This document shows, piece after piece, positions 57,490 to 64,000 of a stretch of 64,000 nucleotides of DNA. Each line of letters starts with the position of its first letter. The first letter of the stretch is position 1. The stretch is from assembly GCA_965237745.1 (NCBI GenBank), contig OZ250156.1:3553426-3617425 (forward strand). The letters are read 5' to 3'. Position numbers and translations under genes: made by a program. This DNA comes from Dehalococcoidia bacterium (GTDB taxonomy: Bacteria > Chloroflexota > Dehalococcoidia > Lucifugimonadales > UBA3495). The notes under the pieces are model-generated. The model was not told the origin of the DNA, ran no database searches, and saw only the letters and a list, made by a program, of their open reading frames with translations.

Positions 57490-58627
57490 TCAGGTAACGC
57501 GCCCATAGAGGCTGGCGATGGTCTGGATGGGTCGGAAGGCACAGCTTTTGGCTCGCAGGGGCATGGACATCCGGGAGGGGAATCCTCCCTCCAGGCGCAG
57601 GGCGTTCAGCCCGGTGTTCACCAGGGTGGCGAATACCTCCCCCAACCCCGGACGCCGCAGCGTGTGGACGTCCTCATCCCAACTGCGGTCCTTCACGTGG
57701 TGCAGGCTGTTCTCAACACTCCAGTGCTGGCGGAACAATCGAAGCAGTTCCTTCGGTCCGCACCGCCGGGAACTCAGGCTGGTCAGCAGATACCAGCGCT
57801 CCCGGCCCACCTCCCCAGTGGCTATATCCACCCTTTCCTTCTCCACCATGGCCCCCTGCCTTGCCCAAGGAAACCCCAGTTCATCCCGGACGTAGCCGGC
57901 CAGCAGGTCATCGGTCCAGATCCGCCGCCTCTCGATCACACCCGCTTTTTTTCCAGGGTCTCCGCCTGTGGCTCCCCCAGTTCCTCTGGGGCAAACCCGT
58001 CGGTCAGCGCCGCCAGCACCGTCGGCTGGTTTCCCTTGACCCGCACCAGATAGTCCCGTCCGTGGTCGACTATGGCCTGGCACAGGTCCCGCTCCGCATA
58101 CAGGGCGTCCATGGTCAGCAGCCGCAGGCCGGGATAGTCCTCGAACAGCCGGCCAGTTGCTCCCGCAACACCCCGGGTTCGTAACGCTTCTCCGACGCCG
58201 GCCACTGGGCCAGGCACAGCTTCAGGTCATGGGCCAGCACGTTCACCATCACCAGGGGATTGCCTAGGCCATCCTCCGACTGCTTGGCCCACTTGCCGTC
58301 CACCGAGGCGTCCAACTCCTGGTTCGCCACCACGCGGGCCACCCAGCCGGTCAGGGCCCCCTGCAACTGCTCACAGGGCACCCCAGCCAGGGTGCGGGAA
58401 ATGGTGGTCGCGTGGGGCGGATCGTCCCTGAGAAAGCCCAACGGCTCTTTCAGTGCCGGCCAGTGCATCCTGGCGAACAACGCGATGTGGGCCATAGTGG
58501 TCTGGCCGCAGACCAAGCCCAGCAGGGTCAGACGCAGTATCGCCTGAAAGGGATGGCGCACTCCCCTGGCCCTCCGAGGGTCCGGCACCTGCTCCAAGCA
58601 ATGGAATAGAGATTCCTCCGCACCCAT
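57490..58627 (-). pseudogene. ISAs1-family (H-repeat-associated) transposase with two frameshifts
   Basis: FHCLEQVPDPRRARGVRHP...SVDGKWA.. (58115-58627), ..LTMDALYAERDLCQAIVDHGRDYLVRVKGNQ (57936-58217), ..WSVENSLHHVKDRSWDED (57490-58083), in three frames. Confidence 0.8.
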
Positions 58628-58975
58628 ATCCACACACTCCCATCTCTCGTCTCCCTCCCCTTGTAATCCCGCTTGCCCAACTTTGCAATCGTCCTGGCCA
58701 AGCCACAGCGCATCAAGACACCAATAAGGGATAGCAACTCTGAAAATCGGCACCGACCAAGCCAGCGTGCGTGTAAAAGAATGGCCGTTAACCAGCAACC
58801 GGGACACGTCGAGCAGACAGACCCAACTGGAGATGCAGCGAAGCAGCGTGAAGAGCGGACCGTAACCGCCCCTCTATCTCCAAGAGAGTGTGGCCGTCAG
58901 GACGGCGCCGTCGGCGCAACAGAAATCAGCCACGACCGTCTGCAGGGAAACCCATCGAGTGAGGCAGACCACAGC

Positions 58976-59959
58976 ATGAATAAACACGAGCAGGCTCGAG
59001 CCGAGATACTAAGGGAAGCCGGATACATGCCTCCCGGCAGGTCGAGAGGGAGAACGAAGAGTTCCATAAAGGCCGACGAGTACTGGCCTGCACCGCCACC
59101 GGCTAACCTGCTCGTGCAACCAGTGGGAGATTGCCTGATCTGGACGGGTCAGCTAAACGGAGATGGGTACGGCACCAGCAACTTCCCGAAGGACTTGCGG
59201 TTGGCCCACATTCAGGCATACGCCCAGTCGAGAAAAACAAGGGCGAACCCGGGGCGCTCAATTTGCCACTTGTGTCACAGACCATACTGCATCCAGCCCT
59301 CGCACCTGTACGAGGGAGACAACAAGACAAACTCCGACGACCGCAAGCTGAGGTCGGGCAAAGGCTCCATGTCACTCGTTTTCCATAAACACGATGAAGT
59401 GATGAACGCCGCGAAATATCGCTGGCCCAGCCCTTCGCCGAACAATGAGAGCCTACTGGACCCTGATGCAGTCGAAGTACAACACGAATGCGAATACATC
59501 ATCCCGGCCGGGGACGTGGCTATCTGCTCCGTCTGCGAGCAACCGGAGGACCCGAATCTCCATCGGGACTCCGGCCCGAAGCGAATGCAACCCCCGGACA
59601 CGGACAAGAACGTCCACTCCATGGTCAAATTCGGCAAGGCCGTTGCTGAGATAGGCAACGGAGCAGTCCTTTGCTCCAACATGGAAGTGGAGCTCGACCT
59701 GCCGAAGAACCGGGCGGAGAGGCGAAGGAGGTTGCGGCAGACCAGGAAACAGCGTGCTTGGGATGGGCCGGTTCTGATACATCAGGGCGAAGGGATCGTG
59801 CGCGTCAACGACCCGCGGCCCATACACGTCAAGACGGCTGCGCCTTTCGTTGCCCCAAGCGACGGTCTGCTGGTGGTCATGGTCTCAGCCAGCCCCCTGG
59901 GGCGCAGTGAAGCAGAGTTACTGGAACGGCTTGCGCGACCGAGACCCCAAGCTGAGTGA
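58976..59959 (+). CDS. HNH endonuclease-domain protein (phage/homing-type HNH_3) with unknown C-terminal half
   Basis: CLIWTGQLNGDGYG...AHIQAY...ICHLCHRPYCIQPSHLYEGDNKTNSDD. Confidence 0.75.
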   Translation: MNKHEQARAEILREAGYMPPGRSRGRTKSSIKADEYWPAPPPANLLVQPVGDCLIWTGQLNGDGYGTSNFPKDLRLAHIQAYAQSRKTRANPGRSICHLCHRPYCIQPSHLYEGDNKTNSDDRKLRSGKGSMSLVFHKHDEVMNAAKYRWPSPSPNNESLLDPDAVEVQHECEYIIPAGDVAICSVCEQPEDPNLHRDSGPKRMQPPDTDKNVHSMVKFGKAVAEIGNGAVLCSNMEVELDLPKNRAERRRRLRQTRKQRAWDGPVLIHQGEGIVRVNDPRPIHVKTAAPFVAPSDGLLVVMVSASPLGRSEAELLERLARPRPQAE

Positions 59960-60207
59960 GGGGCACAGAGGGGAAAATCACCCAAACGCGTAGAAAGCGA
60001 AGAATCAGAAAAGACACCAGAGCCCGGCCAAGAGGGCCGGGACCGACTGGAGCCGTTCCAAGACGCAAGCGGATGCACAATTCCGCCGAGGGGTGTGCAG
60101 AGAACCAGACGAGAATCGGCGAAGGTAGGGGCAGATCAAGAGGCAAAAAAGTAGACACATACAGTAGAATCCCCGCCGGACATCAAAACGAACGGAGATG
60201 CCTCGGC

Positions 60208-61323
60208 ATGGCTAAACTGCTGCTACCAGGGATTCTCATAATCCTGCTCACCCTGGCCGCCTGCACGGAGCCGGCACCGACAGCTGTCGTAGCACCAACA
60301 ACGGCTTTAGCGCCCACTGAGACAGCCACGGCAGGCAACCAGGCTGGGCCGACCCCAGTTGCAGGGCCGACCGAAGAGCCAACATCAATGCCTACGAGGG
60401 CACCCACGAGCCCACCGGAGCCTACGGCGACAGTAGCACCTGCTCCGACGCCTGAGCCCGAGCCGACAACGACTGAGAAACCGTCAGCGACGGCAGCTCC
60501 AACCCCGATACCGGCAGCTACCGAAACGCCGGCACCGACACCCGAGCCCACCGCAACAGCCGAACCGACTCCAGAGCCTACACCGACTCCAACGGCAACA
60601 CCTGCACCGACGCGAGAGCAGGACGCAGCCATGTGGCGGGGTCTCGCAGTGGCGCCCGAGGACCGGTGCTCAGACTACGACCCGGACGACTACCACTACT
60701 CACCGTCAGTCGAGCTCAAGATCGTCGACGCCCAGGGCGGCATCTACGGGCCCTGCACGGGGACCTGGTTCGACAGCATCCGGGAAACGGACATCGAGCA
60801 CATCGTGGCCCGGTCGGAGGCCCACGACAGCGGTGTGTGCTCCGCCGACCCGGAAACGAAGGACCAGTTCGCCGCCGACCTGCTGAACCTCACGCTCGCA
60901 TCCCCTAGCGTCAACCGCCACCAAAAGGTGGACAAGGACGCGGCCGAGTGGCTTCCCGAGTTGAACCAGTGCTGGTACGTGGAACGCACCGTCCAGGTGC
61001 GCCGGGAATATGGGCTGACCATCGACCGCGCCGAAGCGGCCGCAATCGACGACGTCCTCGCCGGCTGCGAGTCGACCGAGATGGTCGTGTTGGCTAAGGG
61101 GACCGCACCGACCGGGACTGCCACGGCAACACCGGCTCCAACCGAAGTGCCTACCCCCGCCGGAGGCCCTGACGTGGACGCCTTAGCCCTTTACGACGAC
61201 AACGGCAACGGCCGGATAACCTGCGCAGAGGCCCGAGCTCACGGCATCGCGCCCGTCCGGCGCGGACACCCTGCTTACGAGTACATGCGCGACGCCGACG
61301 GCGACGGGGTGGTCTGCGAATAA
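60208..61323 (+). CDS. Secreted lipoprotein nuclease: Thr/Pro-rich linker + DUF1524 (His-Me finger) + Excalibur Ca-binding domain
   Basis: Lipobox LLTLAACT. About 130-aa PT-rich linker. DIEHIVARSEAHDSG...NLTLASPSVNRHQK...AAEWLP...CWYV. C-terminal DDNGNGRITCAEA...DADGDGVVCE. Confidence 0.8.
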   Translation: MAKLLLPGILIILLTLAACTEPAPTAVVAPTTALAPTETATAGNQAGPTPVAGPTEEPTSMPTRAPTSPPEPTATVAPAPTPEPEPTTTEKPSATAAPTPIPAATETPAPTPEPTATAEPTPEPTPTPTATPAPTREQDAAMWRGLAVAPEDRCSDYDPDDYHYSPSVELKIVDAQGGIYGPCTGTWFDSIRETDIEHIVARSEAHDSGVCSADPETKDQFAADLLNLTLASPSVNRHQKVDKDAAEWLPELNQCWYVERTVQVRREYGLTIDRAEAAAIDDVLAGCESTEMVVLAKGTAPTGTATATPAPTEVPTPAGGPDVDALALYDDNGNGRITCAEARAHGIAPVRRGHPAYEYMRDADGDGVVCE

Positions 61324-61439
61324 CCAGACGGTCCAGAGGCGGAACGACAAGTCCCATGGCAGTGTGCCCCGAGCACCCTTGAGGGCACTCCAGTAATGTA
61401 GTATGAGGGGCGCTGAATCCAGCCAGAACGGAGAGAAGC

Positions 61440-63415
61440 GTGCAGGACGCCCAGCTAACCACAATCTCCAACTTCATCTGGAACACCGCTGACGCCGTAC
61501 TCAGGGACCTGTACCTCCGCGGCAAGTACCGGGATGTCATCCTGCCCATGACCGTAATCCGCCGACTGGACGCGGTGCTGGAGCCTACGAAACAACAGGT
61601 CATCGACCTGAAAGAGAGTCTCGACAAAGCCGACATCGCTGATCAGACCGGGCCGCTACAGCAAGCCACCGGTCAGCAGTTCTACAACGCATCGCCGTTC
61701 ACGCTCCGGGACCTGCGAAACGCCACCTCGCAACAACAGCTCCGCGACAATTTCAACGCCTACCTCGAAGGGTTCTCGCCCAACGTCCAGGATATCCTCG
61801 AGAAGTTCGAGTTCAGGAACCAAACCGCCCGGCTCTCCAGCGGCGGCGTGCTCGAAGCACTCATTGAGCGGTTCCTGACCCCCACCGTGAACCTCAGTCC
61901 CAAGCCTATTCTGAACGAGGACGAAACGGTCAGAATCCCAGGGCTCGACAACCACGCCATGGGAACCATATTCGAGGACCTGATCCGCAGGTTCAACGAG
62001 GAGAACAACGAGGAGGCCGGCGAACACTGGACTCCTCGCGACGCCGTGGAGCTCATGGCAAAGCTGGTGTTTCTCCCCATCGAGGATGAGATTCGGTCCA
62101 ACACCTACGTCCTCTACGACGGAGCGGTCGGGACCGGAGGGATGCTCACTGTCGCAGAGCAGACCCTGAGTGACATCGCAGACGCCAGGCAACTGGAAGT
62201 CTCCACCCACCTGTACGGTCAGGAGATCAACTCGGAGACCTACGCCATCTGCAAGGCCGACCTGCTCTTGAAAGGCGAGCAAGGAGCCGACGACAACATA
62301 GTAGGCGGTCCGGAGCACTCCACGCTGTCCAACGACGCCTTCAGAGGCCGGACCTTCGACTTCATGCTCAGCAACCCCCCTACGGGAAGAGCTGGAAGAC
62401 CGACCAGGACAGGATGGGAGGCAGAAGCGGGATGACCGACCCCAGATTCGTCATCCAGCACGCCGGAAACCCGGAATACTCGCTGGTGACGCGGAGCAGC
62501 GACGGGCGGCTGCTCTTCCTGGCCAATATGCTAAGCAAGATGAAGGAAGACACCCCGCTGGGAAGCCGTTTGGCTGAGGTCCACGACGGAAGCTCCCTGT
62601 TCACCGGGGACGCCGGCCAGGGAGAGAGCAACATCCGCCGGTGGATTATCGAGAACGACTGGCTGGAGGCCATCGTCGCCCTGCCCCTCAACATGTTCTA
62701 CAACACAGGCATCGCCACCTATGTCTGGGTCCTGACCAACCGGAAGCCCGACCACCGGAAGGGACACGTCCAGCTCATCGACGCGACCTCGTGGTACACG
62801 CCCCTCCGGCGAAACCTGGGCCAGAAGAACTGCGAGCTATCCCCTGAGAACATCCAGCAGATATGCGACGCCTTCCTGGACTTTCAAGCGACGGAGCAGT
62901 CGAAGATATTCCCAAACGAGGCGTTCGGGTACTGGAAGGTCACTGTGGAGCGGCCGCTCCGGATTGAGGGCATCGACCCAGAGAAAGCCCACACTGCCAA
63001 AGAAATAAGAGAACTACGCACGAACGGAACGCGCTCGGAGTCAGCACCTGCAGTCATCAAGAAGATCCACGGGCGGGACGCCGTGACCAACCCCCTGAAC
63101 GGGTTGGTGGAGACGACCATCAAGGGTCGGCCGGCCGTGGTCGAGTACGAGCCGGACCCGGAACTGCGGGACACCGAGCAGATCCCCCTGCTACATGAAG
63201 GCGGGATAGACGCGTTCCTAGAAAAGGAGGTACTGCCCTACGCCCCCGATGCCTGGTACCCGCTAGGGCGGGTGAAGGTGGGATACGAGATCAGTTTCAC
63301 CCGCCACTTCTACAAACCGAAGCCCATGAGGCCACTGCACGAGATCCGCGCCGAAATGCTAACGCTGGAGCGAGAGTCCCAGGGACTGTTCAAAGAGATA
63401 ATTGCCGCAGCATAA
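61440..63415 (+). CDS. hsdM: Type I restriction-modification methyltransferase subunit with a frameshift inside the NPPY motif
   Basis: HsdM_N pattern (ISNFIWNTADAVLRDLY.GKYRDVILPMTVIRRLD) and FDFMLSNPP. The C6 run at 62375-62380 is one C short of AAC CCC CCC TAC. The sequence continues as YGKSWKTDQ... in the next frame (track ORF 62414-63415). Confidence 0.9.
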
Positions 63416-63435
63416 CCGCACAGTAGGAGCAAGAA

Positions 63436-64000
63436 GTGAGGTTCCAAGAATACAACATAGGCCACTGCCAACGCGGCGATGTTGTTGAAGTAACGCTTTC
63501 AGGGAATGCAGCCAACGTCCGCTTGCTCAGCCCGAGCGAATTAGCCAACTACCGAGCTGGGCGTAAGCATCGGTATTATGGTGGATTGATCAAGACATCA
63601 CCTGCTCGCTTAGCCATCCCCCATTCGGGAAGTTGGTACGTTACAGTTGACCTTCAAGGACTCCGTGGACAAGTTCGCTCGTCCGTTCGCGTAATCCCAC
63701 AAGCGGCGTTAACTCCGCTCCCAGACTTTTCACCACCAACGATCTCTAACCTAGTGCGCCCTGTAAGAAACGATGACACAGAACGTCTGGAAAGAGACGG
63801 CGAGACACAAAGGCTGGAAACTGGCGACACCCCTCCGCCAGACTACTACGACGTTTTTATATCTCATGCTACTGAGGACAAAGGCGCTGTTGCTCGGCCG
63901 CTGGCGACTAGCTTGGTATCACACGGACTAAAGGTATGGTTTGACGAATTTGAACTGCGAATAGGAGACAGTCTGAGAAGAAAAATAGATACTGGGTTGG
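63436..64000 (+). CDS. DUF1883-TIR domain protein (3' end outside window)
   Basis: GTG at 63436 after AGGAG. The N-terminal region matches my recollection of DUF1883 (GDVVEVTLSGNAANVRLL...GRKHRYYGG...IPHSGSWYVTVDLQGLRGQVRSSVRV). TIR start YYDVFISHATEDKGAVARPLATSLVSHGLKVWFDEFELRIGDSL. The frame is open to the window edge and the ORF is not in the supplied track. Confidence 0.8.
   Translation, partial: MRFQEYNIGHCQRGDVVEVTLSGNAANVRLLSPSELANYRAGRKHRYYGGLIKTSPARLAIPHSGSWYVTVDLQGLRGQVRSSVRVIPQAALTPLPDFSPPTISNLVRPVRNDDTERLERDGETQRLETGDTPPPDYYDVFISHATEDKGAVARPLATSLVSHGLKVWFDEFELRIGDSLRRKIDTGL

Follow-up and report, generated by a model that had tools for sequence, protein, structure and literature searches.

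The window, that is the whole stretch of 64,000 nucleotides analysed here (Dehalococcoidia bacterium, phylum Chloroflexota; assembly GCA_965237745.1, contig OZ250156.1, positions 3,553,426 to 3,617,425 of the forward strand), ends within a gene that encodes an N-terminal DUF1883 domain, a linker and a bacterial TIR domain. The gene follows directly on hsdM, the methylase gene of a type I restriction-modification (R-M) operon. The DUF1883-TIR protein is probably an autonomous NAD+-cleaving TIR enzyme (NADase) of abortive infection comparable to SpbK, with the R-M operon as its host and insertion site and not as a required partner.

The DUF1883-TIR gene at the end of the window

By direct reading of the sequence, the open reading frame (ORF) starts with a GTG at 63436-63438 and remains open for 188 codons up to position 64000; its translation is VRFQEYNIGH...DVFISHATEDK...GLKVWFDEFELRIGDSLRRKIDTGL. 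The TAA stop codon of hsdM at 63413-63415 is separated from the GTG by an intergenic spacer of 20 nt on the plus strand (63416-63435), which contains the Shine-Dalgarno sequence AGGAG at 63425-63429 with a distance of 6 nt to the start codon. Pfam assigned residues 1-89 to DUF1883 (PF08980; profile positions 1-88 of 89, E = 6.6e-30, 103.3 bits at a cut-off of 26) and residues 140-188 to TIR_2 (profile positions 1-48 of 122, E = 5.5e-10, 40.2 bits at a cut-off of 28). Both matches exceed chance by far. Pfam gave these two domains only, and neither an ABC-ATPase nor an anticodon-nuclease domain was found. The TIR part was also matched by the PADLOC models PDC-S66 and ThsB.

On the plus strand DUF1883, a putative sensor or regulatory beta-sandwich, occupies 63436-63702. 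The linker of residues 90-139 (63703-63852) is variable, predicted to be disordered and includes a conserved PLP motif. The TIR domain is represented by its N-terminal 49 residues, DVFISHATEDK...RRKIDTGL, at 63853-64000, where the end of the window cuts the gene ahead of the catalytic W...E motif. The ORF is the 5' two-thirds of the gene for a DUF1883-TIR protein of about 265 residues and, judged from its closest relatives, would extend for about 77-86 codons past the window. An earlier note on this DNA, made from the sequence alone, had described an ORF without a stop in the window that starts at a GTG 20 nt past hsdM behind an AGGAG ribosome-binding site; these coordinates read as claimed. 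It had named DUF1883 for the N-terminal domain and seen a linker and the start of a bacterial TIR domain behind it, in agreement with the Pfam assignments.

A search of a collection of 5.8 billion proteins yielded 6673 homologous clusters. Among the matches listed nearly all were 260-275 residues long and carried both DUF1883 and TIR. The best match, P0001, was 82% identical to the window protein over all 188 residues and 92% identical across the TIR part. Full-length members read on past the last residues of the window with ...ARSRFGVVVISPSFFAKNWPQYELDGLV..., and in P0001 the sequence WPQYELDG is located about 20 residues beyond the point that matches the window end.

The TIR domain is related to solved NADases

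When compared with solved structures, the TIR half of P0001 matched BtTir (7UXR) with an E-value of 1e-52 and AbTir (8G83, 7UWG and 7UXU) with E-values of about 5e-50; further matches were PdTIR (3H16) and BtpA/TcpB. Superposition of the P0001 TIR on BtTir, PdTIR, BtpA and AbTir by Foldseek resulted in target-normalised TM-scores of 0.84-0.91 at 53-59% identity. W207 and E211 of P0001, which belong to a conserved W..YE motif, aligned with the W..YE of the solved AbTir chain, and the W and the E of the motif are kept in at least 95% of 82 family sequences. The TIR domain falls in the clade of AbTir (Acinetobacter baumannii), BtTir (Bacteroides thetaiotaomicron), PdTIR and BtpA/TcpB, i.e. Tcp TIR NADases (7UWG, 7UXU, 8G83, 7UXR, 3H16, 4LZP), with which it shares the fold and the motif. 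Compared with the solved NADases AbTir and BtTir, the TIR domains of full-length relatives reached about 57-60% identity. Whether AbTir or BtTir are fusions with DUF1883 too was addressed with the DUF1883-TIR proteins of Acinetobacter and Bacteroides, whose identity to the solved chains was about 60%, not near-identity, and neither was thereby shown to be a fusion. The solved chains of the AbTir/BtTir group consist of TIR domains only, and descriptions of the group mention no type I R-M context.

The AlphaFold2 model of P0001 (predicted local distance difference test, pLDDT, of 83.6) comprised a beta-sandwich at residues 1-92, a disordered linker at 111-133 with a pLDDT below 50 and the TIR fold at 137-271. 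The mean pairwise identity of the 82 members was 76% for TIR, 60% for DUF1883 and 36% for the linker. The ratio of non-synonymous to synonymous substitutions (dN/dS) between the window copy and that of locus L001 was 0.12 overall, 0.07 for DUF1883, 0.045 for the TIR part and 0.39 for the linker. To judge from these ratios, the window copy is under purifying selection. It retains 52 of the 57 highly conserved positions covered, and at least two of the five changed positions are also changed in the closest relative.

The structure of the DUF1883 part, for which the earlier note had suggested a model, was predicted from the window fragment by AlphaFold2. The model (pLDDT 92) is a beta-sandwich of eight strands and one helix. 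By sequence, the DUF1883 half of P0001 is related to Atu1913 (PDB 2B1Y, E = 2e-11). The invariant polar residues of the domain are N27, R29, H45, D72, Q74 and W67.

The hsdM-TIR-hsdS operon

The closest relatives of the window protein were 72-82% identical and came from Chloroflexota. Their loci are L001-L003 with P0001, L004 with P0002, and L005 and L006 from Chloroflexota and Dehalococcoidia metagenome-assembled genomes (MAGs). In all six hsdM, the DUF1883-TIR gene, hsdS and later hsdR lie on one strand. The GTG start of the TIR gene is kept in all members of the clade, and the spacing of 20 nt between hsdM and the TIR gene is common to the window and L001-L003. The stop codon of the TIR gene overlaps the start of hsdS as ATGA throughout L001-L006; L007, the nearest relative that is not embedded, has no such overlap. 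A scan of the plus strand from 60900 to 64000 for promoter- and terminator-like sites found none except one weak promoter match inside hsdM.

Within its type I R-M operon the TIR gene occupies the junction of hsdM and hsdS. As the relatives have this gene order and neither a promoter nor a terminator intervenes between hsdM and the TIR gene, the latter has displaced hsdS without replacing it and is very probably co-transcribed with hsdM. The co-transcription suggested in the earlier note is thus supported. Its placement of the TIR gene where hsdS is usually found was right as to the junction, yet hsdS is shifted, and in each of the six closest loci it comes directly behind the TIR gene. By analogy with these loci, the 3' end of the window gene would overlap hsdS as ATGA, and more cargo genes and then hsdR would be expected downstream.

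The operons of the relatives also carry other cargo. In L005 an IS200-like fragment, Hypoth_Ymh and the DUF1883-TIR gene are inserted between hsdM and hsdS, and DarT together with a Macro-domain (DarG-like) protein between hsdS and hsdR. The stretch from hsdS to hsdR in L001 contains a DUF433/DUF5615 pair as well as a protein that shows a weak match of the HEPN type, under the Pfam cut-off.

Association with type I R-M systems

One genome per species was scanned, which provided 80 loci with proteins 50-74% identical to P0001. The phyla include Chloroflexota, Bacteroidota, Bacillota, Planctomycetota, Omnitrophota, Actinomycetota, Desulfobacterota and Pseudomonadota. Type I R-M systems were detected with profile hidden Markov models built from the loci's own HsdM, HsdS and HsdR, and location on the same strand was required. 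Such a system was present near the TIR gene in 11 of the 80 loci (about 14%), while the other 69 had none within 10 kb. From the usual sizes of genomes and operons we roughly estimate that well under 1% of random genes would have a type I R-M system this near. Thus 14% is a strong enrichment.

The position of the TIR gene within the R-M loci varied. In L005 and L006 the order is M, TIR, S, R. In L015, L046 and L061 it is M, S, TIR, R, which is the position of prrC; L015 has an additional small GIY-YIG-like gene between S and TIR. The TIR gene follows M and S in L072 and L036 and R in L039, and M and S are located 4 kb upstream of it in L021-L023. In a neighbour-joining tree the R-M-associated loci fall in at least six separate lineages, and their HsdM proteins are only 22-28% identical to HsdM of the window's clade. 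The repeated, independent capture of the gene by type I R-M operons is good evidence, of the guilt-by-embedding kind, for a defence role.

That type I R-M operons host embedded defence genes, as the earlier note had stated, is a described pattern; genes nested in type I R-M, BREX and DISARM loci have been reported and exploited (bioRxiv 10.1101/2024.01.29.577857). A literature search for a TIR gene embedded between hsd genes found nothing. The earlier note had named PrrC as the paradigm. This applies to the position inside a type I hsd operon, as PrrC of the EcoprrI operon is likewise a defence gene lodged among co-transcribed hsd genes, but fold and activity are unrelated. Nor does the comparison extend to genomic distribution. 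PrrC is almost exclusively embedded in R-M systems (bioRxiv 10.1101/2024.01.29.577857), and the embedding of DUF1883-TIR at about 14% of loci is far below that. Because 69 of the 80 loci lie away from R-M systems, a functional dependence on hsd genes is unlikely.

Other neighbourhoods and plasmids

A conserved partner gene was sought across the 80 loci and none was found family-wide. Seventeen Bacteroidales loci (in L024-L059) share a cassette that consists of an AAA_13 protein of about 745 residues, a WYL/WCX regulator, a GIY-YIG-like protein of about 100 residues and DUF1883-TIR (e.g. L024, 4496-10762); AAA_21 and RloB often precede it. The AAA_13, WYL and GIY-YIG-like genes were rejected as partners of the whole family, since the cassette is confined to one Bacteroidales clade. 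Because the small GIY-YIG-like gene is also found a few bases upstream of the TIR gene in the R-M-associated loci L015 and L021-L023, the two may form a two-gene unit in that clade. The remaining loci share no conserved neighbour; their flanks contain defence ATPases of the ABC and OLD types (AbiLi, AriA, GajA, HEC-01; PARIS/Gabija/AbiL-type), type IIG methylases, GmrSD and integrases.

Full-length copies were present in 113 plasmid records, many of them conjugative plasmids of E. coli and Klebsiella, where they are annotated merely as 'DUF1883 domain-containing protein'. Two plasmid copies were examined for hsd genes nearby; none were found, and one of these copies stands alone. Phage genomes contained TIR-only or DUF1883-only relatives and no fusion of the two. 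Taken together, R-M association in 11 of 80 loci, the occurrence in many phyla and on plasmids and the lack of a conserved partner therefore favor a stand-alone gene of the SpbK kind over a dependent one of the PrrC kind.

On the E. coli IncF plasmid NZ_CP141738.1 (L085, 5218-6768) the DUF1883-TIR protein WP_001159649.1 is encoded head-to-head with a TIR-domain protein of 204 residues (WP_000160640.1). The pair adjoins the transposase of ISEc63, a member of the Tn3 family, and a resolvase, so that DUF1883-TIR is here the cargo of a Tn3-family element. The gene for WP_001159649.1 is found on many conjugative plasmids of E. coli, Klebsiella and Aeromonas. A literature search for the accession of the E. 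coli plasmid protein found nothing.

Proposed mechanism and comparison with known systems

In the uninfected cell the TIR domains would be kept from the head-to-tail assemblies that form a composite active site. Upon infection the DUF1883 module would bind a trigger, most likely a multimeric phage protein. Binding would cluster the TIR domains, and the oligomer so formed would cleave NAD+, possibly also with release of a cyclic ADP-ribose (ADPR) isomer, a type of product reported for bacterial TIR NADases. As a consequence of the loss of NAD+ the cell would no longer support phage growth. The R-M operon would act as the transcriptional host and insertion site of the TIR gene.

The best working model for this mechanism is SpbK from ICEBs1 of Bacillus subtilis, a single-protein TIR defence encoded by one gene on a mobile element (PMC12847820). 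In SpbK a sensor at the N-terminus is followed by a linker and the TIR domain. The trigger is the portal protein YonE; docking of the N-terminal domains on the dodecameric portal of the phage puts the TIR domains head-to-tail, thereby forming the active site (PMC12847820). Yet, SpbK's N-terminal domain is a 4-helix bundle (PMC12847820), whereas that of the window protein is modelled as an eight-strand beta-sandwich, and the SpbK TIR was absent from the sequence matches to P0001. The TIR systems of E. coli described by Wang et al. 2024 (PMC11350192) are single genes with variable N-termini that are triggered by phage structural proteins, namely portal and tail proteins. E. coli itself also has DUF1883-TIR genes on plasmids.

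Of the PADLOC models, PDC-S66 was the best match. In full-length homologues the TIR half aligned with profile positions 128-281 of 282 at 221-236 bits, while positions 1 to about 127 stayed unaligned, i.e. the N-terminal domain differs. PDC-S66 is uncharacterised; the source of the PDC set was genes found inside BREX, DISARM and type I R-M systems (bioRxiv 10.1101/2024.01.29.577857). The TIR domain of DUF1883-TIR also matches the models of ThsB of Thoeris. However, the operons of L001-L006 with hsdM, hsdS, toxin-antitoxin-like genes and hsdR contain no gene for ThsA or another effector.

The DUF1883-TIR architecture, in Pfam terms PF08980 joined to PF13676 or PF01582, is listed among the predominant prokaryotic TIR architectures (PMC9153377), and NCBIfam has no curated model for the protein. 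With thousands of clusters in many phyla and copies on conjugative plasmids of E. coli and Klebsiella, it is among the commonest bacterial TIR architectures. The window gene is one more, truncated example of an already described pattern and adds little that is surprising. The family is a cheap and well-motivated candidate for functional work, as it combines a TIR domain close to the best-studied bacterial TIR NADases with recurrent capture by R-M operons.

The frame break in hsdM

The hsdM gene (61440-63415, plus strand) is split into two ORFs at 61440-62435 and 62414-63415. Pfam identified HsdM_N and N6_Mtase, the latter divided between both ORFs (profile positions 3-136, then 160-278 of 311), and the PADLOC model MTase_I matched the two with E-values of 7e-112 and 2e-112. 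Alignment with relatives located a frame-shifting deletion of 1 nt to a C6 run at 62375-62380 in the codons of the catalytic NPPY motif. These codons read AACCCGCCCTAY in L001, L004, L005 and L006 and AACCCCCCTAC in the window (aligned AACCC-CCCTAC). The lesion is the single one in the gene; one added base restores an HsdM of 658 residues that is 78% identical to that of L001 and has NPPY at residue 312.

The window contains 20 homopolymers of at least 6 nt, and frame breaks occur at two of them, the C6 of hsdM and an A7 in a transposase gene. We rejected the idea of a window riddled with homopolymer errors. Because 18 of the 20 long runs show no frame break, the window is not generally error-ridden. 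Runs of C or A, which are found at both located breaks, are nevertheless of the type that long-read base-callers miscount, and the hsdM deletion may be a base-calling error. The earlier note had taken the methylase to be switched off. Its reading frame is indeed broken once, but this rests on one nucleotide in a C-rich run. Type I enzymes require HsdM for restriction and for modification, so both would be lost if the break was real. The TIR gene would not necessarily be affected.

The second hsdM ORF begins with the ATG at 62414, which lies 22 nt ahead of the stop codon of the first ORF and is directly preceded by a AGGACAGG stretch (62405-62416). Provided that the frameshift exists, a restart of translation at 62414 could limit polarity on the downstream TIR gene.

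Alternative explanations

Several observations count against an autonomous TIR NADase of phage defence. The catalytic half of the TIR domain, the stop codon and the downstream genes are all located beyond position 64000 of the window, and a literature search found no experimental test or enzyme assay of any DUF1883-TIR protein. Housekeeping genes flank some of the 80 loci. BtpA/TcpB, which are close relatives of the TIR domain, were first described as virulence factors. With a mean identity of 60% across phyla, DUF1883 is unusually conserved for a sensor of phage proteins. A structure search with the DUF1883 model of the window yielded weak matches only (E-values of about 0.01, TM-scores of about 0.5). 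The neighbours are GOLD domains, a collagen-binding domain and PliG, a lysozyme inhibitor, all of them generic beta-sandwiches that give no functional lead. Clustering of DUF1883 at 50% resulted in 836 representatives, and domain partners were counted in the nearest 150. TIR was found in 23, a DnaJ domain in one and the N-terminal domain of an integrase in one. The remaining ones have DUF1883 alone by Pfam, many with a length of about 90 residues. Because most of these representatives carry DUF1883 alone, the domain looks like a generic small binding module. In C. difficile one DUF1883-only protein has been tied to a cell-morphology phenotype.

If the TIR protein were a guard like PrrC, it would be silenced by the type I R-M complex or monitor it, and it would fire when a phage anti-restriction protein disables the complex. 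Such a guard would fit the recurrence of embedding in at least six lineages of the family tree, the prrC-like place of the TIR gene, behind M and S and ahead of R, in L046 and L061 (and in L015 with its extra GIY-YIG-like gene) and the coupling of hsdS translation to the TIR gene by the ATGA overlap in the window's clade, absent from L007. We consider it quite unlikely, however, with most loci free of type I R-M genes within 10 kb and plasmid copies standing alone, whereas PrrC is almost exclusively embedded. In addition, embedded and non-embedded members do not differ in the conservation of DUF1883, and unrelated cargo in the same operons (DarTG, Ymh) points to a general insertion hotspot. 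A narrower version is limited to the Chloroflexota clade, where the TIR protein would be an integral, translationally coupled guard and NAD+ would collapse upon anti-restriction or upon an out-of-frame slip of the C-run in the NPPY codons of hsdM. This is very unlikely; if true, the gene would be a counterpart of PrrC with a TIR domain, and the methylase might contain an on/off switch. Another alternative is a signal generator as in Thoeris, in which a cyclic ADPR isomer made by the TIR domain would be the second messenger for an effector encoded elsewhere in the genome, rather than the TIR domain itself killing through NAD+ depletion. The TIR part scored 136-141 bits against the PADLOC ThsB model. 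Bacterial TIR NADases are known both as NAD+ depleters and as makers of 2'cADPR and 3'cADPR, and an unlinked receptor is considered possible for SpbK too (PMC12847820). Yet TIR and effector genes share an operon in known Thoeris systems (PMC12847820), and neither a ThsA-like gene nor any other conserved partner adjoins the TIR gene in the 80 loci. Since the gene travels by itself on plasmids and across phyla, a need for a receptor supplied by the host is improbable, and we consider a signal generator unlikely.

Two further alternatives concern the fate of this copy and the target of the enzyme. The end of the window could be a decaying island, in which the TIR gene of this genome is non-functional, perhaps truncated or silent through polarity. 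The deletion in the NPPY codons and the neighbouring transposase gene with two frame breaks over three frames agree with decay, as does the clustering of frame breaks in the last 7 kb while 18 other homopolymers are clean. On the other hand, all 188 visible codons are intact, dN/dS is 0.12 (0.05-0.07 within the domains), and of the few conserved positions that changed at least two are shared with the closest relative. As both located breaks may stem from base-calling and a loss of HsdM would end restriction and methylation without the TIR gene having to suffer, decay is an unlikely explanation. Finally, the protein may have no part in phage defence and act as a Tcp-type TIR on other cells or hosts, or as an NAD-linked regulator with DUF1883 binding a conserved cellular ligand. 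This would be in line with BtpA/TcpB of Brucella being among the closest solved TIRs, with the invariant polar residues of DUF1883 and with the many short DUF1883-only proteins, which give no link to defence. We consider it highly improbable, given that neither a signal peptide nor a secretion context was seen, that free-living Chloroflexota and many environmental phyla are among the hosts and that the gene is found repeatedly inside R-M operons and beside defence ATPases. Thus we favor an autonomous, SpbK-like TIR NADase.

Neighbouring genes

An ISAs1-like transposase gene (DDE_Tnp_1_assoc and DDE_Tnp_1) at 57490-58807 on the minus strand is split over three reading frames. Its second break is located at the A7 run, which appears as T7 on the plus strand (57946-57952). 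The gene is either a decayed insertion sequence or the result of base-calling errors.

In the Chloroflexota MAG OZ244845.1, L005 (6235-17073) represents a single type I R-M operon with four embedded cargo genes.

Upstream of hsdM the window has two overlapping genes on the plus strand (58673-61323). One encodes a protein of 428 residues with a weak match to a His-Me finger endonuclease (25.5 bits at a cut-off of 27). The other encodes a protein of 455 residues, in which a Pro/Thr/Ala-rich linker is found together with a nuclease domain of the GmrSD_C type and, at the C-terminus, an Excalibur calcium-binding domain. Because an Excalibur protein precedes hsdM in L001 too, the upstream neighbourhood is syntenic.

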